Positions 30,601-38,940 of a stretch of 64,000 nt of DNA are shown here, piece by piece. The notes beneath the pieces are model-generated. The model was given only the letters and a program-made list of their open reading frames with translations, did not search any database and had not been told where the DNA came from. The position numbers and the translations under genes were made by a program. Location of the stretch: the NCBI GenBank assembly GCA_045586685.1, contig JAZNAU010000042.1, forward strand, positions 1 to 64,000, written 5' to 3'. How positions within the stretch are numbered: position 1 is the first letter of the stretch; each line of letters begins with the position of its first letter. Source of the stretch: Clostridia bacterium (GTDB lineage: Bacteria > Bacillota > Clostridia > HGM11514).

Positions 30601-31447
30601 TCAATTTTTCAGGAACATAAGATAGCTTTGCCTTTCGCAAGGCTTCCAGCCCCATATCCTCCTCACGGTCGATAAATACAGCCTCATGAAATTCATGCTC
30701 ACAAAACTGCTGATTTATCATTGGGTATGCACCCTGATAGGATGCATCCGCTTTTTCCATGTGAATCAAAGCTGTGTCCGCTGTCAGCATTTCCCCAATG
30801 GTAAAAGCAACCACTTTTGAATCCACCGTCAGCACACCGCCTTTACATTCTAGTGCATCAAAATCCTCAATGGATTTTCTCACTGCATCAAATTCACATT
30901 CCCGTGAAAAATCGTCCATTTCTGTTTTACTGTCCAGCCATTCTTTTTCCAATGCAAGACATTCTTTGGCAAACTCTTTAGAAAAAGAATGATATTCATA
31001 AGCATATAAGCTTTTAAATTTATTGATATGATTTCGCTTACTGTGCAATTTCTTCCCCGACAGCGTTACCAGTTTTTCACGCAAATACACATAATCGTAA
31101 GAATCACGACGATCTGTCACAGTCAGGTCGGAATACCACAATTTCATTTGTGCAAGCATGTCGTTGGTCAACATCCCAAAATACAAACATTCCGAAAATT
31201 CTCTTCTCAAATGTTCGATAGCAGAATGCACATCTCCGTCCCCAATGGGAAAAGAAGCAAAGGTGCATCCTTTGATGTTCATTACAACACAAAGACAATC
31301 TTCTATAATCTGCCATTTGACTCCCGTCATCTTCTCCCACAGATACATGGTGGTAAAATTACATTGAGAATAGGCGTAACTTTTTTTCTGCAGATACTCC
31401 CGAATCACAAACCTATCCTCCAGTCTTAAAGGACTCCAAGTCAACAC
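30569..31447 (-). CDS. DUF2156 (aminoacyl-PG synthase C-terminal-like) soluble protein
   Basis: DYVY..LSGKKLHSKRNHINKF, HMEKA, DREEDMGLEALRKAKLSY. Confidence 0.88.
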   Translation of the reverse strand: MLTWSPLRLEDRFVIREYLQKKSYAYSQCNFTTMYLWEKMTGVKWQIIEDCLCVVMNIKGCTFASFPIGDGDVHSAIEHLRREFSECLYFGMLTNDMLAQMKLWYSDLTVTDRRDSYDYVYLREKLVTLSGKKLHSKRNHINKFKSLYAYEYHSFSKEFAKECLALEKEWLDSKTEMDDFSRECEFDAVRKSIEDFDALECKGGVLTVDSKVVAFTIGEMLTADTALIHMEKADASYQGAYPMINQQFCEHEFHEAVFIDREEDMGLEALRKAKLSYVPEKLIEVQTVVIRK

Positions 31448-32118
31448 AATTCATCTCCATTTAAAAGTTCCGTCACTAAATTCCACACCTCGTCTGAAAT
31501 TTCCTCCGGCGTTTTAATTACACCGTCTTTTGCGCAAACAAGCCGTTTCCAACCCATCTGCTCTGCCACAGAAACTGCATTTTCATAAGCCCGATGCATA
31601 TAGCCGGTATCCTTTTCGTGGATATCCTTTTGCTTTTCACCGGTGATTTTGTTATTTCTCTCTTTCATAAGAAGAGAAGCATATTGAGGGGGCATATCCA
31701 AAAACACCACCAAATCAGGTCTGGGCAGTTCCATTAACCCATACTCAAATTCAGAAAGCCAACATAAAAACTGTTGACGGCGTTCTTCGTCCTCAATTTT
31801 GCAAGTCTGGTGAATCATATTGGAAGTCACATAACGGTCTGCCAAAATAATTCCACCATTGTTATAATATTCTCCCCATTTTTGTTTATAGGATGCATAC
31901 CGATCACATGCAAAAAAGACGGATGCCACTTCCGGACTCACATCATCTGCATGAGTACCAAATTCTCCGTTTAGATACATTTTCACCAAAGCCGAAGACT
32001 GGCTTTGATAGTCAGGAAAAGAGACTCTTTTCGCATTGGAAAGCCTTTGGTGCAAAAGTTCTGTCTGTGTTTGCTTACCACTGGCATCAACCCCTTCAAT
32101 TACAATCAGCTTACCCAT
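31441..32118 (-). CDS. tmk: Thymidylate kinase family protein
   Basis: EGVDASGKQTQ P-loop, DRYVTSN, PDLVVFLD; adjacent to thyX. Confidence 0.88.
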   Translation of the reverse strand: MGKLIVIEGVDASGKQTQTELLHQRLSNAKRVSFPDYQSQSSALVKMYLNGEFGTHADDVSPEVASVFFACDRYASYKQKWGEYYNNGGIILADRYVTSNMIHQTCKIEDEERRQQFLCWLSEFEYGLMELPRPDLVVFLDMPPQYASLLMKERNNKITGEKQKDIHEKDTGYMHRAYENAVSVAEQMGWKRLVCAKDGVIKTPEEISDEVWNLVTELLNGDELC

Positions 32119-32890
32119 GATTTTGCTCTCCTAAATTCTTGAATTTCGCCCGTATTTCTGTTGCATGTCCACAAGTCATACTGCCCTCTTTACAAGGTCC
32201 GGACACACAGGAAGGTCCTGCTTTTGCAAAAAGCATGGGAGCTATATCACGCACCAACATCAACATCTGTGTTGCCAGCTCTCTAATTTCCCATTGAGCA
32301 CGGTTGCAGCAGCGCAAACGGAAGAAGTTATACAAGCTTCTTGCGTTCATTGTTACAATCATTTTGGTTTCACAACCGTTAGGTAGAACAAAACGTGCAT
32401 CTTCAATCGCCATCTTTTCAGCCTGACGGGCAGCAGATTTTTCTTCCACACCCTCATCCAACAATCGCTGATAGTGATTCTTACTTAAAATCTCTGTCAA
32501 ACGGTCATATTTTTGCTGGATTTCTTCCATTACTTCATCAAAAAATTCTTTTGCCTCAGGGCATTGCTCAATTTCCGGAGGGGTCACATAAGCAAATTGA
32601 TTTTCCATTACATACCGCTGGGATTTCACACTGAAGGAAGCGATTCTGTGACGTGTAATCTGGGCAAGCAACGCACGGGAAATCCCCTCAATTCCAAAGG
32701 TAAAAGAAACATGCTCAATAGGACTTTCGTGCCCCAAAGACATAAGATGTTCAATAAATTTCTCTGTTTTTTCAGGATTTAATCCTTCCATCAGTCCGTC
32801 AATGTCAGAAGAAGAATAGCATAATTTTGCAGCGGCAGCTACTAATCGCTCCGGATTTGGGGTATGCTCCAATAAAGTTACTTTAAGCAT
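32111..32890 (-). CDS. thyX: FAD-dependent thymidylate synthase
   Basis: GHESPIEH, RHRIASFSVKSQRY, EDARFVLP, AQWEIR. Confidence 0.97.
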   Translation of the reverse strand: MLKVTLLEHTPNPERLVAAAAKLCYSSSDIDGLMEGLNPEKTEKFIEHLMSLGHESPIEHVSFTFGIEGISRALLAQITRHRIASFSVKSQRYVMENQFAYVTPPEIEQCPEAKEFFDEVMEEIQQKYDRLTEILSKNHYQRLLDEGVEEKSAARQAEKMAIEDARFVLPNGCETKMIVTMNARSLYNFFRLRCCNRAQWEIRELATQMLMLVRDIAPMLFAKAGPSCVSGPCKEGSMTCGHATEIRAKFKNLGEQNHG

Positions 32891-33620
32891 TTGCTCCGTC
32901 TCCCTTCCAATTCTTTTTTATCACAGTCATTAAAAACTTTGGCAAATTCATCATCCGCCCTATTCTTGACGGTTGCTTTATTAACCGATAAAACCATTCC
33001 AAATTTGTTTTACAGAAAAATTCAGGAGCCCGCTTCACCGTTCCCGCCAGCACATCCACAGTTCCGCCTGCACCAATGCAAACCTTCACCTTGAGCTCGT
33101 CCCGATATTTTGCAATCCAGTTTTCCTGACGGGGAAATCCTGTACAAACCATTAAAAAGTCTGCATTTGAATTGTTTATCTGCTCTATAACAGCCTCGTC
33201 ATTTTTAAAATATCCGTCACAAAAACCCGCAACACGGATTCCGGAATATTTCTCTTTCATGTTATTGGCAGCCATTTCTGCAACACCCGGTTTTCCACCC
33301 AGCAAAAAGACGCTTTTGTTGCGAGAGGGTAATCCTTCCAGCACATGGCAACACAGCTCAAATCCCGGAACACGCTCTTTAACCGGTGTGCCAATAATCT
33401 TCGCTCCATATACCACACCGATGCCATCCGGCAATGTCAAATCTGCCGAATTCAGCACATCTCTATACTCCGGCACATGATACGCATGATAAACAATTTC
33501 CGGATTGGGAGTGACAACCATACGGGTTTCTTCCTCCTCCAACCATTGGAAAACCGTTTCAACCGCTTCGTCCATTGTGACATTATCAATTTTTACACCC
33601 AAAATATGTATTTGTTCCAT
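32883..33620 (-). CDS. WecB/TagA/CpsF family glycosyltransferase
   Basis: VTPNPE, PDGIGV, GFPRQE, KRAP..LEWFYRL. Confidence 0.92.
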   Translation of the reverse strand: MEQIHILGVKIDNVTMDEAVETVFQWLEEEETRMVVTPNPEIVYHAYHVPEYRDVLNSADLTLPDGIGVVYGAKIIGTPVKERVPGFELCCHVLEGLPSRNKSVFLLGGKPGVAEMAANNMKEKYSGIRVAGFCDGYFKNDEAVIEQINNSNADFLMVCTGFPRQENWIAKYRDELKVKVCIGAGGTVDVLAGTVKRAPEFFCKTNLEWFYRLIKQPSRIGRMMNLPKFLMTVIKKNWKGDGANA

Positions 33621-33719
33621 CAGCCGGTCGGCCCCTTTCCTTTCTTACCCTTACAGGGTAAATATAAAGATATAATGTTATTATAAAATCAGTAAATGAT
33701 TTAAATACCGAGTATTTTA

Positions 33720-33960
33720 CACAATCCACACCAAGTCCTGCCATGTCAGGCCTTTCCTTCTCTTCACTTTTGCCCGTTACCTGACAAACATATTGTAAAA
33801 CTTCCGAAACATCAATGTGGAGAATATCAGATATTCTTTTTGTAAAAGCCTTATTTAAATCTTTAGACTGATAAAGCAGATATTGCAAAGAATATGTTGC
33901 AATATCTTCTTGAGACCCTCTTATGTGTGGATATAAATGTGCTAATAATGAATAAGACAT
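33720..33960 (-). pseudogene. 5' fragment of a putative PD-(D/E)XK nuclease-like gene
   Basis: SD-preceded ATG 33960; protein-like up to ERPDMAGL, then reads into AT-rich intergenic DNA and the next gene start; no E-x-K follows. Confidence 0.5.
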
Positions 33961-33985
33961 ATTTATTTTCCCTTTCGTTTCAAGG

Positions 33986-34339
33986 TTATTGATTTCCTTT
34001 CGCAGTAGTTACGGATGCTATAAGCAATTTCCTAATTTTGCTACATTTATCGTATATCTCTATATATTCTTCTTCAGTTATCATTTTCGTTTCCTTAAAA
34101 AGTCCCAACCAATAATCGCTTTCATAGCATTCTTTCAAAGCGATTTGAAACTTATTTATAAAATCAGCTTTGCTTGCTGCATAATTTGCTTCGTGAATAT
34201 TAGCACCAATGCTTGTTCCACTTCTTAAAAGCTGATTTAACAACACATTTCCTTTTCTATTTTCTTTGATTTCAGTACAAAGGTTTACAATATCAACCGC
34301 AAATTGTTTTGATAAATCTACCAGTCTGTTTTCTTTCAT
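33986..34339 (-). CDS. Four helix bundle protein (TIGR02436 / 23S rRNA IVP / Avd-like fold)
   Basis: NQLLRSGTSIGANIHEA, SKADFINK..IALKEC.E..YWL signature. Confidence 0.93.
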   Translation of the reverse strand: MKENRLVDLSKQFAVDIVNLCTEIKENRKGNVLLNQLLRSGTSIGANIHEANYAASKADFINKFQIALKECYESDYWLGLFKETKMITEEEYIEIYDKCSKIRKLLIASVTTAKGNQ

Positions 34340-34354
34340 ACCTTTTCTCCATTT

Positions 34355-34540
34355 AATGAATTGACAACTTCGTTGTCATGAATTGGCTAAAGCCATGAAT
34401 TGTTGCTATCGCAACATGAATTAAATTGCCTTTTAATGCACTTTAGTGCAATTCATGAGCCGTAAAGCTCAATTCATGAAATCTTTGATTTCAATTCATG
34501 CTGAAGGCAATTCATTGAGTTCAAGTTTCACTTGAACTCA
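34355..34540. repeat. Mirror-symmetric array: 4x ATGAATT then 4x AATTCAT, interspersed with distinct hairpins
   Basis: ATGAATT at 34356, 34378, 34395, 34416; AATTCAT at 34450, 34471, 34493, 34509; self-complementary spacers. Confidence 0.9.
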
Positions 34541-34568
34541 TTATATCACAAACAAAGAAATATTTCAA
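34540..34568 (-). promoter_or_regulatory. sigma-A promoter reading through the array into the four-helix-bundle gene
   Basis: TTGAAA(34568-34563)-17 nt-TATAAT(34545-34540) with TG extended -10. Confidence 0.7.
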
Positions 34569-34585
34569 CTATTTTGTTTTTTTGC

Positions 34586-34614
34586 TGGACTTTCTGCGAA
34601 ATTTGTAGTAAAAT
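34586..34614 (+). promoter_or_regulatory. Probable manA promoter
   Basis: TGGACT-17 nt-TAAAAT. Confidence 0.45.
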
Positions 34615-34643
34615 AGAATTAGAACAAAAACAGGAGGCAAACC

Positions 34644-35561
34644 ATGTATCCTTTAAAAATGAAGCCTGAAATAAAGCACCTCATTTGGGGCGGAAAAAGA
34701 CTTCGTGAATTTTATAATAAAAACTGTACCCGTGATGATGTGGGTGAAAGTTGGGAGGTTTCTGCCCATCCGGAAGGATTAAGCTACATTGCAAATGGTG
34801 CTCTAAAAGGGGTTTCTTTGGCAGATGCGATTCAACAATATCCGGAAGAAATTGCACCGGTGGAATTTCCTCTTTTATTTAAACTGATAGATGCCAGTCA
34901 AGATCTGTCCATTCAAGTGCATCCTGACGATGCTTACGTTCAGAAAACCAACAATAACCTTCACGGCAAAATAGAAATGTGGTATATTATTGATGCAAAA
35001 CCGGGTGCCCGTATCGGGTACGGCTGGAATCAGACCATGACTCCTGATTTGGTCAGACAAGCCATTGAAAACGGCACTTTGGAGCAGTATATTAACTATA
35101 TTCCCGTAACAGCAGGACAAGCTTATTTTATTCCTGCCGGAATTGTGCATTGTCTTTGCAAAGGTCTTTTGGTAGCAGAAATTCAACAAAATTCCACCAT
35201 GACCTATCGTCTCTACGACTATAACCGCAAAGACAAAAACGGAAATAATCGTCAACTTCACATCCACGAAAGTCTGGATGTGCTTGATTATTCCGATAAC
35301 AGAAATGCAACGGTTGTAACAGGAGATAATGTCATTTTGGCAAGTTGCCCCTATTTTACGGCTGAAAAAATTATAAGCGACTATTACAAAGGAGATACCA
35401 AGGATACATTTGAAATTCTGTTTTTTGTTAACGGACACGGAGAAATTATTACAGATCAAGGAACGGAATCTTTCCAAGCGGGAGATACTTATCTGCTCCC
35501 CTCCTCTCTTGGTGCATATACCATAAAGGGACAATGCACCATAATGCGATGTGTAGAATAA
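34644..35561 (+). CDS. manA: Class I mannose-6-phosphate isomerase
   Basis: IWGG, GESWE, LSIQVHPDD, EIQQNS..TYRLYDYNR. Confidence 0.92.
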   Translation: MYPLKMKPEIKHLIWGGKRLREFYNKNCTRDDVGESWEVSAHPEGLSYIANGALKGVSLADAIQQYPEEIAPVEFPLLFKLIDASQDLSIQVHPDDAYVQKTNNNLHGKIEMWYIIDAKPGARIGYGWNQTMTPDLVRQAIENGTLEQYINYIPVTAGQAYFIPAGIVHCLCKGLLVAEIQQNSTMTYRLYDYNRKDKNGNNRQLHIHESLDVLDYSDNRNATVVTGDNVILASCPYFTAEKIISDYYKGDTKDTFEILFFVNGHGEIITDQGTESFQAGDTYLLPSSLGAYTIKGQCTIMRCVE

Positions 35562-35581
35562 ACTCAATAGAAAGGATAGAA

Positions 35582-36739
35582 ATGATGAATATTGCAAAAG
35601 ATATTAAATATATTGGTGTAAATGACCATGAAATTGATTTATTTGAAGGCCAATATGTAGTTCCAAACGGTATGTCTTATAACTCCTATGTGATTTTGGA
35701 TGAAAAAATTGCGGTGTTAGATACAGTAGATCAAAATTTTGGCAAGGAATGGCTTCATAATATTAGCAATGCAATAAACGGAGGAACTCCTGATTATCTT
35801 ATTGTTCAGCATATGGAGCCGGATCACTCTGCCAACATTAAAAATTTTACCATTCAGTATCCGGATGCAAAAATTGTTGCGTCAGCAAAAGCTTTTGTTA
35901 TGATGAAGCAGTTTTTTGGTACAGATTTTCCAGAAAAACAAATGGTTGTCGGAGAAGGCGATACCTTGGATTTAGGAACCCATAAATTGACCTTTATTAC
36001 TGCACCCATGGTTCATTGGCCTGAAGTCATTGTCACCTATGACAGCACCGATAAAGTGTTATTTTCCGCTGACGGATTCGGTAAATTTGGTGCTCTTGAT
36101 GCACAAGAAGACTGGGCTTGCGAGGCACGGCGTTATTATATCGGTATTGTAGGAAAATACGGTGCACAGGTGCAGACTCTTTTAAAAAAGGCTGCAACTT
36201 TGGACATCAAAACCATCTGCCCTCTTCACGGCCCTGTATTAGCAGAAAATTTAGGCTATTATCTTAATTTATATAACATATGGTCAAGTTATGAGGTAGA
36301 ATCCGAAGGTGTGGTAATTGCTTATACTTCTGTTTATGGCAATACCAAAAAGGCAGTATTGGACCTGGCTGAACAATTAGAAAAACAAGGCTGTCCCAAG
36401 GTTGTGGTAAATGATTTGGCAAGATGCGATATGGCAGAAGCGGTGGAGGACGCATTTCGCTATGGAAAACTTGTTCTCGCCACTACCACTTATAATAACG
36501 ATATATTCCCTTTTATGCGTGAATTTATCGATCATCTGACCGAACGGAATTTCTGCAACCGAACTGTTGCCTTTATGGAAAACGGAAGTTGGGCTCCTGT
36601 TGCGGCAAAGACGATGAAGGGAATGCTTGAAAAATGTAAAAATCTCACTTATGCCGATACAACTGTAACAGTTTTATCTGCTCCAAATGAAGAAAATTCA
36701 TTAGAAATCAGGGCATTGGCAAGTGAGCTTTGTAAATAA
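35582..36739 (+). CDS. fprA: Flavodiiron protein (FprA, A-type flavoprotein)
   Basis: HMEPDHS, MVHWPE, FSADGFG, flavodoxin domain SVYGNT. Confidence 0.93.
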   Translation: MMNIAKDIKYIGVNDHEIDLFEGQYVVPNGMSYNSYVILDEKIAVLDTVDQNFGKEWLHNISNAINGGTPDYLIVQHMEPDHSANIKNFTIQYPDAKIVASAKAFVMMKQFFGTDFPEKQMVVGEGDTLDLGTHKLTFITAPMVHWPEVIVTYDSTDKVLFSADGFGKFGALDAQEDWACEARRYYIGIVGKYGAQVQTLLKKAATLDIKTICPLHGPVLAENLGYYLNLYNIWSSYEVESEGVVIAYTSVYGNTKKAVLDLAEQLEKQGCPKVVVNDLARCDMAEAVEDAFRYGKLVLATTTYNNDIFPFMREFIDHLTERNFCNRTVAFMENGSWAPVAAKTMKGMLEKCKNLTYADTTVTVLSAPNEENSLEIRALASELCK

Positions 36740-36760
36740 TTAAAATTGGAGGTTAATGGT

Positions 36761-36919
36761 ATGAAAAAGTATGTATGCGACGTATGCGGTTGGGAATATG
36801 ACGAAGAACAAGGTGCTCCCGATCATGGTATTTCTCCCGGCACAAAATTTGAAGATTTGCCTGAGGATTTTGAATGTCCTCTTTGCGGAGTGGGCAAAGA
36901 TCAATTTTCTGAAGAATAA
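36761..36919 (+). CDS. Rubredoxin (52 aa, missing from ORF track)
   Basis: [14 protein letters not shown]...[20 protein letters not shown]; SD GGAGG. Confidence 0.97.
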
Positions 36920-36925
36920 AAACCT

Positions 36926-36964
36926 AAAAAGGTTCCCGTTTACAATAACTGCGGGAACCTTTTA
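36926..36964 (+). terminator. Terminator after rubredoxin
   Basis: AAAAGGTTCCCG..CGGGAACCTTTT. Confidence 0.7.
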
Positions 36965-36982
36965 CATAAAAGGGGGATTGTT

Positions 36983-37735
36983 ATGAATTTAGTTTTACTT
37001 ACCGCATTAGGCGTTGGAGGAGCTACCGTGTTTGGCTCCTGTATCGGTTTTTTATTTAAAAAGTTATCCCATAAATTTTCAGATATTATTCTATCCTTTG
37101 CGGCAGGGGTCATGCTTGCAGCAGCCGTGCTGGGACTCATTCTGCCCGCTGTGAATTTTGGTGAGAAAAATGGCCTGATCATTACCGTAATCGGCATTTT
37201 TGCAGGTGCACTTTGTTTGAATCTGATTGACAAGTTAGTCCCTCATCTTCATAAAATGATTGGATCTGACAGCGAAGAACACAATAATGCAGATTTAAAC
37301 AAGGTACTATTGTTTGTTTCTGCTATTGCAATTCACAATCTTCCTGAAGGAATTGCCGCCGGTGTTGGCTTTGGTTCAGGAAATACTTCCCAAGCACTGT
37401 TAATTGCAGGCGGAATCGCATTGCAAAACATTCCGGAAGGTATGGTCATTATTGCTCCCTTGCTTGCAGCAGGGGTCAATCCCTCCAAAACCTTCATTTC
37501 TGCTATGATAACCGGCCTGGTGGAAGTCATAGGAACGCTAATTGGTTATTTCGCAGTTAGCTTTTCCACGGCGATTCTCCCCTTTGCTCTTGCTTTTGCG
37601 GGAGGAACCATGCTTTACGTAATCAGTGATGAAATGATTCCGGAAACTCATGCTCATGGTCATGAGCGAAATGCCACTTATGCGTTGCTGATAGGATTTT
37701 GTGTTATGCTGATAAGCGATGTATTGTTGGGATAA
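36983..37735 (+). CDS. ZIP family metal transporter (ZupT-like)
   Basis: FAAGVML, HNLPEG, QNIPEG, EMIPE. Confidence 0.92.
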   Translation: MNLVLLTALGVGGATVFGSCIGFLFKKLSHKFSDIILSFAAGVMLAAAVLGLILPAVNFGEKNGLIITVIGIFAGALCLNLIDKLVPHLHKMIGSDSEEHNNADLNKVLLFVSAIAIHNLPEGIAAGVGFGSGNTSQALLIAGGIALQNIPEGMVIIAPLLAAGVNPSKTFISAMITGLVEVIGTLIGYFAVSFSTAILPFALAFAGGTMLYVISDEMIPETHAHGHERNATYALLIGFCVMLISDVLLG

Positions 37736-37782
37736 ATACTTTGCACGTTTTTTAGAAGGAACACTGAACTGGTTTGTGTTAT

Positions 37783-37817
37783 AAAAAATGGCTTATCAAG
37801 AGATAAGCCATTTTTTT
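37783..37817. terminator. Bidirectional intrinsic terminator
   Basis: AAAAAATGGCTTATC-AAGA-GATAAGCCATTTTTT between convergent genes. Confidence 0.8.
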
Positions 37818-38940
37818 ACGATATAAATTTTTGATACTGTTCCGGTGTCATAAACACGCAATTTTTTGTTTTTAAAAATTTCACAATGGTTTCCAATTCT
37901 TTAAAAGACTGGTCATCCCACTGCCCCGGATGAGCCTGTATCACAAAATAAGGCAATTCTTTCACAAACTCATACCGTGCAAAAAACAACTGACTGCTTA
38001 CAATGCCCGTACCGGTTTCAATTTCACAAATGTGATCAGAAGATAAATTTAACGCATGAAGCCGACTATTGGTATCGTGCATAAACATAACAGTTTGAAT
38101 CTGAGGAAACTCGCAATTTAACACCGATATGGTATCTTCGTTATTTTGATTATAGGATGCACTAAAGCAAGTTGTACGGTATTGAAGCACTGTTTCCATC
38201 AAATCATAAGTTTTACAAATAATGTCCCGTTGTTCCTTATAAGTAGATGCAGGTGTTTCTTTTAAAGCAGCAAACTCACCCGCTGAATGATCGTATCCAT
38301 GAATCCAAAGCTGATGACCTGCCAAAATCCAGCTTTTTATCAATGAAATTTGATTTTGATATTTTTTAGGATTTGTCTTGGCATCCTCAAGCCATTTCCC
38401 CAAAATACCCGCTGTAGCGGGAATCCCTTCTTTAGATAGATAGGACATTGCTTTGTTAAAACGAGCCGTTTGATTCCCTACAGTTGGCCGCAAATCATCA
38501 AACTTAAACACGATTACTTGTGCCGGAAGCAAGGCATCTTCTGCAACTGGACAACAAATTTCCATAGAATCCTTCCATAAAATGTAAGCCTTTATTTTGT
38601 CGGCCCGTTTCAGGTTGTCCAATCTGAATTGATAATTCGTTACTCCTGAGGACAACATCCCTGTATATAACACCTGTGATTGCTGTAATTCTCCATTGGA
38701 AAAAGCAGCAACCGCAACAATGGTTTCTTCCGTTTGAGAAGAACGGTCGGTAACGGATACAGTACCCTCAACCACAGTATCGTTCATCAACTCTGTCTGT
38801 GTTGTCATTCCGTCAATCATCACCTCAACCGAAACTGCTTCTAAAATTGTCATGTCATCTATCGCTAAAACGGGTTGTTTCATACCAATTCCGACACAAA
38901 CCAACAATATTCCCCATAAAAATAGTACAATCCGTCTCAT
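37816..38940 (-). CDS. Secreted polysaccharide-deacetylase-like (NodB fold) protein
   Basis: Signal peptide MRRIVLFL..VLA; FKFDD, HGYDH, IQAHP, FMTP motifs. Confidence 0.7.
   Translation of the reverse strand: MRRIVLFLWGILLVCVGIGMKQPVLAIDDMTILEAVSVEVMIDGMTTQTELMNDTVVEGTVSVTDRSSQTEETIVAVAAFSNGELQQSQVLYTGMLSSGVTNYQFRLDNLKRADKIKAYILWKDSMEICCPVAEDALLPAQVIVFKFDDLRPTVGNQTARFNKAMSYLSKEGIPATAGILGKWLEDAKTNPKKYQNQISLIKSWILAGHQLWIHGYDHSAGEFAALKETPASTYKEQRDIICKTYDLMETVLQYRTTCFSASYNQNNEDTISVLNCEFPQIQTVMFMHDTNSRLHALNLSSDHICEIETGTGIVSSQLFFARYEFVKELPYFVIQAHPGQWDDQSFKELETIVKFLKTKNCVFMTPEQYQKFIS

Follow-up and report, generated by a model that had tools for sequence, protein, structure and literature searches.

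Organization of the ladder and its adjoining gene

The DNA analysed here (the window; 64,000 nucleotides of contig C42, JAZNAU010000042.1) belongs to the 1.55-Mb genome of a Clostridia bacterium (GCA_045586685.1; G000 in our numbering of genomes [G], contigs [C] and loci [L]). On its minus strand, between a host promoter and a gene of the PF05635/TIGR02436 four-helix-bundle family, it carries a mirror-symmetric series of hairpins joined by one invariant heptamer, which we call the ladder. An original prediction made from the letters alone had taken the ladder for the structured leader of this gene and for a candidate undescribed system. The comparative analysis documents a real feature of greater interest than one unusual leader would have, but neither unique to this gene nor wholly undescribed: the ladder is part of a mobile insertion behind a host -10 box, not a private leader, and its tie to the four-helix family is real and general across gut and rumen Clostridia.

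On the plus strand, four copies of ATGAATT (34356, 34378, 34395 and 34416) are followed by four copies of the reverse complement AATTCAT (34450, 34471, 34493 and 34509). Every spacer reads directly as a hairpin, and these copies, the spacers and the 10-bp stem at the outer edge are all as originally described. The total of 31 matches to the two heptamers in the window is ordinary (shuffle mean 27.7); eight of them lie inside the 160 bp of the ladder. In gene orientation the parts are as follows.

34516-34540, minus strand: P0, a 10-bp hairpin at the 5' edge of the element (stem TGAGTTCAAG/CTTGAACTCA)
34450-34515, minus strand: 5' arm in gene orientation, four ATGAATT linkers (34509-15, 34493-99, 34471-77, 34450-56)
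34500-08, 34478-92 and 34457-70, minus strand: 5'-arm rungs h1, h2 and h3
34423-34449, minus strand: apex, with a GCAC/GTGC hairpin (34438-49) and a single-stranded A-rich GGCAATT stretch (34423-37)
34356-34422, minus strand: 3' arm, four AATTCAT linkers (34416-22, 34395-401, 34378-84, 34356-62)
34402-15, 34385-94 and 34363-77, minus strand: 3'-arm rungs h5, h6 and h7
34347-34350, minus strand: Shine-Dalgarno sequence GGAG
33986-34339, minus strand: four-helix-bundle gene (PF05635/TIGR02436), 117 amino acids, start codon 34337-34339

Compared with dinucleotide shuffles, folding with RNA parameters gave z-scores of -7.2 (minus strand) and -6.9 (plus strand), and folding with DNA parameters gave -7.0 and -8.0 for the two strands; 0 of 200 shuffles folded as well, whichever strand and parameter set was used. 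The minimum-energy fold of the minus strand with DNA parameters is the trunk-plus-rungs ladder, whereas the RNA-parameter fold of the same strand recovers it in part only. The proposal that both strands can fold in this way stands for overall stability, for the minus strand with DNA parameters and in part for that strand with RNA parameters.

The encoded protein matches PF05635 with 90.3 bits (cut-off 33.8; E 1e-25) and TIGR02436 with 99.9 bits (cut-off 24; E 9e-29). Its closest solved relative is PDB 2RLD (E 4e-28), which was deposited with five chains. The family, named after the 23S rRNA intervening-sequence proteins, has been known since the 1990s, is widespread and has turned up in rRNA, cas and restriction loci. 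Among the sources available in part, Zhang and Ye describe PF05635 genes inside cas loci (PMC3936711), and PMC10053308 equates PF05635 with Avd.

Insertion of the cassette behind a host promoter

The ladder and its gene are components of an insertion whose boundaries can be read from the following features.

34563-34568, minus strand: -35 hexamer TTGAAA of the host (wecG-like) promoter, also present at the element-free sites of G010 and G006
34540-34545, minus strand: -10 hexamer TATAAT, upstream copy of a duplicated hexamer, with TG two bases upstream
33686-34539, minus strand: whole insertion of 854 bp, comprising P0, ladder, four-helix gene and a foreign gene fragment
33724-33960, minus strand: 5' fragment (79 codons) of the foreign gene within the insertion; the annotatable open reading frame (ORF) 33586-33960 continues into host sequence
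33680-33685, minus strand: second TATAAT, at the downstream end of the insertion (duplicated target or terminal motif belonging to the element)

The orthologous site is empty in four congeneric genomes (G010, G006, G009 and G007), in which the wecG-like and manA-like genes are separated by 141-176 bp, in comparison with 1002 bp here. G010 and G006 retain the TTGAAA-17-TATAAT promoter, there serving wecG directly. The insertion begins directly 3' of the -10 hexamer, the last T of which is the first base of the P0 stem, and stops at the second TATAAT. The consensus minus-strand promoter (34568-34540) and the Shine-Dalgarno sequence had been recognised correctly: 11 of 12 sigma-A positions are matched, with a TG before the -10 box. 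Of the suggestion that the element might act in mobility or recombination, the mobile insertion is borne out; an action as single-stranded DNA (ssDNA) or cruciform is conceivable.

The foreign fragment has a homologue in G274 (contig C14) that is 81% identical over residues 1-79 and forms a 351-amino-acid open frame with its own promoter and without a four-helix gene; the fragment itself has no Pfam or NCBIfam match above cut-off. Because this gene is intact elsewhere, the cassette came from another context, dragging flanking DNA along. Its position just 3' of the wecG-like -10 box predicts that the host promoter can read through P0, the ladder of about 190 nt, the four-helix gene and the fragment into wecG.

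The genome-wide copy count proposed earlier yields four arrays in G000, namely the one on C42, C47:21465-21580, C9:49351-49448 and C9:52987-53107. They share homologous hairpins in the same order, some copies lacking whole modules, and only the C42 array adjoins a PF05635/TIGR02436 gene. On C47 the solo ladder stands between ATGATATAAT and ATGATATCAT, which repeat each other over 10 bp except for one mismatch; the flanks on C42 are the duplicated TATAAT (6 bp). The C9a copy and its terminator-like P0 are absent from the orthologous 3' flank in G010. The boundaries of C47 and C9a are less crisp than those of C42, since synteny with G010 breaks on one side. Conversely, a half array of G010 (L012) is absent from the orthologous spacer of G000, but the two spacers differ along their whole length. 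Inspection of the element ends by eye revealed no terminal inverted repeat, the inverted arms being internal.

The arrangement at the -10 box recurs. Over all loci, 39 of about 42 correctly oriented P0 copies, counted by the P0 motif (automatic P0 detection was replaced as noisy), adjoin a hexamer that matches TATAAT at five or more of six positions. These promoters have a TG-extended -10 box and a TTG 17 nt upstream, and their remaining sequence is unrelated between copies. In the nine closest relatives the next gene is co-oriented, lies 20-80 nt off and has an unrelated function in each case. The pattern looks like repeated capture of different host promoters. Three loci (L189 and L191 of the ATGAATT type, L207 of the AGCTAAAT type) carry a common TTTTTGTCCCTGRCTTGACA in place of the -10 box directly 5' of P0.

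Ladders upstream of four-helix genes in Clostridia

Homologues of the four-helix protein were found at E<=1e-10 in 97 of 399 scored genomes of the class, often several in each. From this protein-first sample we took 90 loci (30 and 60 further down the list), of which 85 had a usable ORF; the dropped loci include L191 and L192, which show in-frame stops in their matches. A mirror ladder was scored in 330-nt upstream regions when a 7-mer occurred at least twice and was then followed by at least two reverse-complement copies, all by exact match, because a version with one mismatch was too permissive (shuffles often reached 2-3). By this measure ladders precede 56 of 81 homologues; the corresponding numbers are 3 of 83 for downstream regions and 6 of 810 for shuffles, and most of the remaining upstream regions contain degenerate or half ladders by eye. 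The link to the family is accordingly general. The proposed search for similar arrays near homologous genes was also productive from the other side: the array-first loci revealed 12 homologues, 10 of them within 101 nt downstream of an array.

The linker heptamer differs between the protein clades. Besides ATGAATT (proteins 74-100% identical), we found AGCTAAAT, ATGAAAT, GTGAAAT, GTGRTAT, TCGATAT, ATGATAT, RATGATG, GTGAAGT, ATGAAGY, TCTTCAC and AGTTTTA. On the protein tree (81 rows, 14 states) the linker label requires 24 changes, whereas none of 200 label shuffles needed fewer than 53; since relatives share labels, this agreement shows linkage and not necessarily interaction. Forward and reverse-complement linkers always change together between clades. 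Heptamers are spaced 16-22 bp apart in the types with rungs and 7 bp apart in rung-less types, whose abutting heptads fold as one long hairpin. The best evidence for the trunk is that the linkers of both arms change together and that the two designs become equivalent only after fold-back, as a duplex of about 28 bp with a 7-bp period. A sequence related to the apex core, RGC(R)AAT, was seen again by eye in other linker types.

One architecture stands upstream of this protein clade across gut and rumen Clostridia: P0, n units of linker and mini-hairpin, the apex and n reverse-complement units. In the ATGAATT and AGCTAAAT types a host promoter adjoins P0. In 26 of 85 protein-first loci the cassette is immediately preceded by a tRNA gene; the tRNA calls, 40 in total, share the strand of the cassette without exception. 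In these tRNA-trailing loci P0 is terminator-like, and a sigma-A-like promoter is often located between ladder and gene (L252, L262, L267, L272). A leader RNA, as considered in the original prediction, can therefore not be the general role. G000 itself harbors a second four-helix gene directly after a tRNA gene (C30:25187-25510, L185; 52% identical), which is preceded by a terminator-like hairpin and a rung-less heptad fold-back, with no ATGAATT ladder.

Selection on hairpins and the proposed trunk

Three or more Watson-Crick pairs close 294 of the 423 unique spacers that lie between two ATGAATT linkers, whereas shuffles gave a mean of 10 and a maximum of 20. Pairing holds for 94.2% of cells in 13 complete ATGAATT ladders, taken from different genomes, and for 24-41% when partners are slid; eight pairs in P0, h2, h3 and h5 show double-sided changes. 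The P0 sequence varies between copies with compensatory changes. The ladder hairpins are under selection for structure, as had been proposed for the variable spacers. The four trunk helices are invariant except for a G-U at one position in 5 of the 13 ladders and an unpaired position in two. A chance AT-rich repeat was considered for the ladder and rejected.

The loops are strongly asymmetric between strands. On the ATGAATT strand, 56 triloops read TNC and 5 read GNA, and 53 tetraloops read TNNC and none GNNA; on the AATTCAT strand they are GNA/GNNA loops closed by C-G. It follows that a mirror ladder has YNC loops on its 5' arm and GNA-type loops on its 3' arm whichever DNA strand is considered. 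The arms are equivalent objects that face in opposite directions, and both DNA strands fold alike. Mismatches on the ATGAATT strand (6 G-T, 13 A-C) are too few to decide which strand is folded. Kissing loops, with pairing of UNC and GNA loops between the arms, were dropped, as the loops of L188 and L193 are not consistently complementary by eye. A non-palindromic GGAGCGAAGCGAG and its variants recur as first or second rung of the 3' arm in several linker types (L189-L196; L202, L204); they contain GCGAAGC, which we take to be the classic hyperstable DNA mini-hairpin.

Dispersed arrays in gut and rumen Clostridia

A triple-linker pattern was detected in 6 of 12 genomes of the order. Of 401 genomes sampled from the class, 62 have it, some of them in the form of unrelated tandem repeats, and hardly anything in this sample matched the reversed control. 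A scan of GTDB species genomes retrieved at least 120 stretches with the array pattern, and the titles listed are mostly metagenome-assembled genomes of gut and rumen Clostridia (Acutalibacteraceae, Oscillospiraceae, Christensenellales, Scatosoma, Ruminococcus). Sixteen IMG/VR contigs are among the matches listed, some of them with true arrays. Two of these contigs, classed as viral (L171, L180), have several ATGAATT/GTGAATT arrays within 5-10 kb, and L180 also has a tRNA. Plasmid and phage collections gave weak gene-level similarity only and no ladder match.

Module strings identical to those of G000 are present in other families (G087, G297), and many arrays are located at contig ends. Arrays of the AGCTAAAT type are multicopy as well; they were found in 36 of 401 genomes and reach 60 pattern hits, a number far above that of the genes. 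The claim that the array is specific to the four-helix leader has to be given up: three other copies in G000 lack such a gene, and about 10 of 146 arrays in the array-first loci adjoin one. Half arrays are unbiased in orientation (44 point the same way as the downstream gene and 41 the other way), which led us to drop the idea of a sense-strand 5'-untranslated-region regulator for solo arrays.

Several loci hint at how elements multiply or decay. In L194 (G247) and L196 (G217) a second P0 with a 5' half array (four modules and the apex hairpin) lies between the stop codon of the four-helix gene and the host gene; judged from this layout, recombination between the two half arrays, which are in direct orientation, would remove the gene, and a solo half array would be left behind. 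The gene-less ATGAATT ladders L015, L021, L044, L045 and L166 have in common a conserved tail, about 40 nt long (TAAAAACAAGGTGCATC...CACCTAATT), with TATAAT at its end. Another P0 follows directly after the tail in L015, L021, L045 and L166, so that elements are seemingly stacked in tandem behind one promoter; the next element of L015 consists of a AGCTAAAT-type gene whose ladder has collapsed to one linker. A short repeat, GAGAAAAGCCTATCCCCCGAGCAG, stands beside half arrays (L009, L011, L012) and twice in a spacer of G000 (C43:180-500).

Relationship to the Gut-1 motif

The consensus of Rfam family RF01706 (Gut-1) consists of three hairpins with GUGAAAU between them. Of the 21 protein-first loci with G/ATGAAAT-type ladders, 14 have a 5' arm that reaches the gathering score of this model or exceeds it; five others score more weakly, and two give nothing at E<=0.001. 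The other ladder arm is often matched too, on the opposite strand. These matches lie upstream of homologous four-helix genes and, like the window ladder, comprise short hairpins separated by one invariant heptamer. The window ladder differs in its linker (AUGAAUU) and in its hairpins: a search of 33500-35200 revealed no RF01706 match (50-bit cut-off) and nothing else credible in Rfam for the ladder stretch, even at E<=10, and no match at gathering score occurs in five other ATGAATT-type loci. The description of the system as new accordingly survives for the window ladder, which has no Rfam match, and fails for the sister type, one arm of which is Gut-1.

In the available text of Weinberg et al. 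2010 (PMC2864571), Gut-1 is presented as a likely non-coding RNA of the human gut only, not cis-regulatory and no riboswitch. No function is stated in this text, and there is no mention of a mirror arrangement, a PF05635 link, several linker types or mobility; the RF01706 model covers one arm only. A literature search, largely outside the subscription journals, found no paper that links the PF05635/TIGR02436 family to such repeats. The ladder is a relative of the orphan Gut-1 motif, and newly recognised are its protein partner, its mirror organization and its mobility.

Possible function of the ladder and competing explanations

The explanation that we prefer, and for which belief and doubt are evenly balanced, is that the ladder acts in cis, as the fold-back element of a small mobile cassette with a PF05635 gene as its only gene, and is the cognate nucleic-acid partner of the encoded protein. 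The heptamers of the two arms would pair into a trunk of about 28 bp with 7-bp periodicity, from which the mini-hairpins protrude as rungs, and the rung-less relatives would be this trunk alone, as a long hairpin. According to the available text of bioRxiv 10.1101/2023.10.23.563531, the pentamer of Avd, the accessory protein of diversity-generating retroelements (DGRs), touches one RNA stem-loop with all five protomers, in keeping with the RNA-binding relative invoked by the original prediction. By homology to Avd and 2RLD, the four-helix protein would be a homo-oligomer, presumably a pentamer, that binds the periodic structure; each protomer may read one repeat, as Avd protomers read the flipped-out bases of one stem-loop. 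Binding could serve autoregulation or protection of the leader, and very possibly the spread of the cassette. Gene-less solo and half arrays would then be non-autonomous or decayed copies.

Several observations weigh against this explanation. Gene-less arrays form the majority (three of four in G000, about 136 of 146 in the array-first loci); G087 has 26 hits of the AGCTAAAT pattern and a single homologue, which is of the ATGAATT type; G008 (87% complete) has eight ATGAATT hits and no homologue; and several array-rich genomes showed no protein of the cognate type. Given that solo arrays far outnumber the genes, an unrelated enzyme could mobilise them. The invariant polar residues of the protein (Q36, R39, S43, G45-A46-N47, E50, D59-F60, E70, E73, Y76-W77, C99, S109) are common to all linker types, so that no specificity residues are evident; the protein is only mildly basic (median pI 8.4), and no nuclease or recombinase motif was recognisable in it. 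Simple linkage would also produce the co-variation of linker and protein. The promoter between ladder and gene in the tRNA-trailing types means that the ladder is not always in the mRNA, and a -10 box adjoining P0 would place the usual start site inside the 5' arm of P0. Finally, the single-linker variants behind the unpaired trunk position (2 of 13 ladders) are uncompensated on the partner arm.

The main competitor, to which we grant a limited, real chance of being right, sees the arrays as independent repeats that fold as ssDNA, similar to repetitive extragenic palindromic (REP) sequences, bacterial interspersed mosaic elements (BIMEs) or miniature inverted-repeat transposable elements (MITEs). 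They would be moved by an unrelated trans-acting enzyme, a HUH/Y1-type or other transposase acting 3' of TATAAT, while the four-helix genes share such landing niches as promoters and the 3' ends of tRNA operons or ride as passengers and co-variation of protein and linker reflects co-inheritance only. The excess of solo arrays, also in genomes without a cognate gene, the balanced orientation of half arrays, the many arrays at contig ends and the differences between copies by whole modules are all in agreement with this scenario. Hyperstable DNA mini-hairpins have 3-bp stems with C-G-closed GNA/GNNA loops, just as one strand of the arrays does. IS200/IS605 elements insert 3' of a fixed short motif and possess a subterminal hairpin and no terminal inverted repeat, a logic that resembles the insertion behind a fixed hexamer observed here, and the imprecise 3' end with its foreign gene fragment fits as well. 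It is more difficult to explain in this manner why nearly every clade member has a ladder directly upstream in one orientation (56 of 81 strictly, most others by eye) and why all eight linkers are identical within a ladder yet differ between protein clades. A candidate enzyme next to the arrays was not found, and the only Y1-like gene of G000 (C13) has unrelated hairpins and is not near the arrays.

A purely RNA element appears quite unlikely to us; the ladder would then be a structured 5' leader or a small RNA, of the same class as Gut-1, that controls or stabilises the mRNA of the four-helix gene and takes no part in mobility, its spread being incidental. The strong promoter immediately upstream of the ATGAATT and AGCTAAAT types suggests transcription, but the likely start site falls within P0, and the tRNA-trailing ladders lie between a terminator-like P0 and the gene's own promoter. 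The fixed orientation relative to the gene is offset by solo arrays in either orientation to genes. Covariation of the hairpins is consistent with RNA, as is the trunk G-U that 5 of 13 ladders show at one position and that can be read on the sense strand; many stems, however, have 3 bp and triloops, which are marginal for RNA, and the arms are equivalent in opposite orientation, with both DNA strands folding alike. In their available parts, Weinberg et al. 2010 (PMC2864571) rate Gut-1 as a likely RNA and bioRxiv 10.1101/2023.10.23.563531 shows that Avd binds RNA. A protein-site array on double-stranded DNA (operator, iteron or centromere-like) is very improbable: the invariant heptamers in direct-then-inverted order and the position beside or overlapping a promoter in all types would suit it, but palindromic, covarying spacers and strand-asymmetric loops are useless for duplex binding, and heptamer spacings of 16-22 bp and 7 bp are equivalent only after fold-back.

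A wider proposal, which we consider unlikely, is that PF05635 proteins and ladders (Gut-1 and at least a dozen sister types) constitute a new kind of mobile nucleoprotein element, in which an Avd-like pentamer on a folded ssDNA or RNA ladder directs copying or insertion 3' of sigma-A -10 hexamers and behind tRNA/tmRNA terminators. It might employ a host reverse transcriptase or a single-strand transposase, enter melted DNA and thereby capture host transcription. Such an element would also explain the presence of PF05635 in 23S rRNA intervening sequences and cas operons.

The association turns two orphans, the PF05635 family and the Gut-1 RNA motif (2010), into one testable system. It provides a candidate nucleic-acid partner for the protein, a natural specificity series of a dozen or more linker types with matching clades, and, at the present locus, a presence/absence polymorphism with mapped junctions. 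Should insertion indeed target -10 hexamers, a selfish element would have an unusual means of being expressed while leaving the host gene active. In Clostridia of the human and ruminant gut the arrays are frequent, and assemblies break at them.

Comparison with known systems

A close parallel to the preferred cassette is the Avd protein of DGRs, a homologous four-helix protein whose pentamer grips a structured RNA beside its own gene, the same residues from different protomers contacting the RNA (available text of bioRxiv 10.1101/2023.10.23.563531). Its partner is a single stem-loop of 9-11 bp, whereas the partner proposed here is a repeat ladder. The locus lacks a reverse transcriptase, a template repeat and a variable repeat; there is no ORF of reverse-transcriptase size within 31000-38000, and the two RVT_1 genes of G000 are confined to C11 and C32. 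Assignment to the Avd, template-repeat and reverse-transcriptase DGR class was rejected on these grounds, as neither an adjacent reverse transcriptase nor template/variable repeats are present. A true DGR does exist outside the window at C32:52134-53715 (L186, L317), with an Avd-like gene (23.5 bits), an AAC-rich stretch that resembles a template repeat, and RVT_1.

REP/BIME sequences are short intergenic hairpin repeats in both orientations that form arrays with linkers, and a given class goes with one clade of flanking single-copy genes for a REP-associated tyrosine transposase (RAYT). The ladders are alike in being dispersed hairpin repeats with linkers and a tie to a gene clade. They differ in that the hairpins vary and the linker is constant, the reverse of REPs, in having a four-helix gene instead of a Y1 transposase, and in their insertion behind -10 boxes and tRNA operons. 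With neither a conserved hairpin sequence nor a Y1 gene flanked by the repeats, they do not belong to the REP/RAYT class. The only Y1_Tnp match in G000 is weak (C13:2761-3054, L187; 23.8 bits) and bracketed by its own GGGAACGACC...GGTCGTTCCC hairpins; it is possibly a RAYT/IS200-like unit, and its sequence is unrelated to the ladder.

The 23S rRNA intervening sequences encode PF05635 proteins beside a long fold-back stem in a stable-RNA operon. The location of 26 of 85 loci directly after tRNA genes is reminiscent of this context, but here the gene lies outside the fold-back, and the host context is a promoter or a tRNA trailer with no rRNA helix. Integron cassettes and IS200/IS605 elements offer a further analogy, i.e. 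a promoterless unit with a folded single-strand site just downstream of a resident promoter; the differences are that no integrase or TnpA is linked, many different promoters are targeted, and the fold is a multi-hairpin ladder. Integron attC sites and iterons were considered for the ladder and rejected.

Type III toxin-antitoxin systems (ToxIN-like), in which identical units of about 34-36 nt are repeated in tandem ahead of a toxin from a known endoRNase family, were discarded as well, the repeat here being a 7-nt linker with differing hairpins in direct-then-inverted order and the protein being PF05635. The same applies to CRISPR arrays, because the repeats measure 7 nt (23-50 in CRISPR) and half of them are inverted, and because hairpins that are conserved from copy to copy take the place of unique spacers. 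As an ordinary neighbour, an S-adenosylmethionine (SAM) riboswitch (79.5 bits) was found downstream of the four-helix cassette at L250:293-390.

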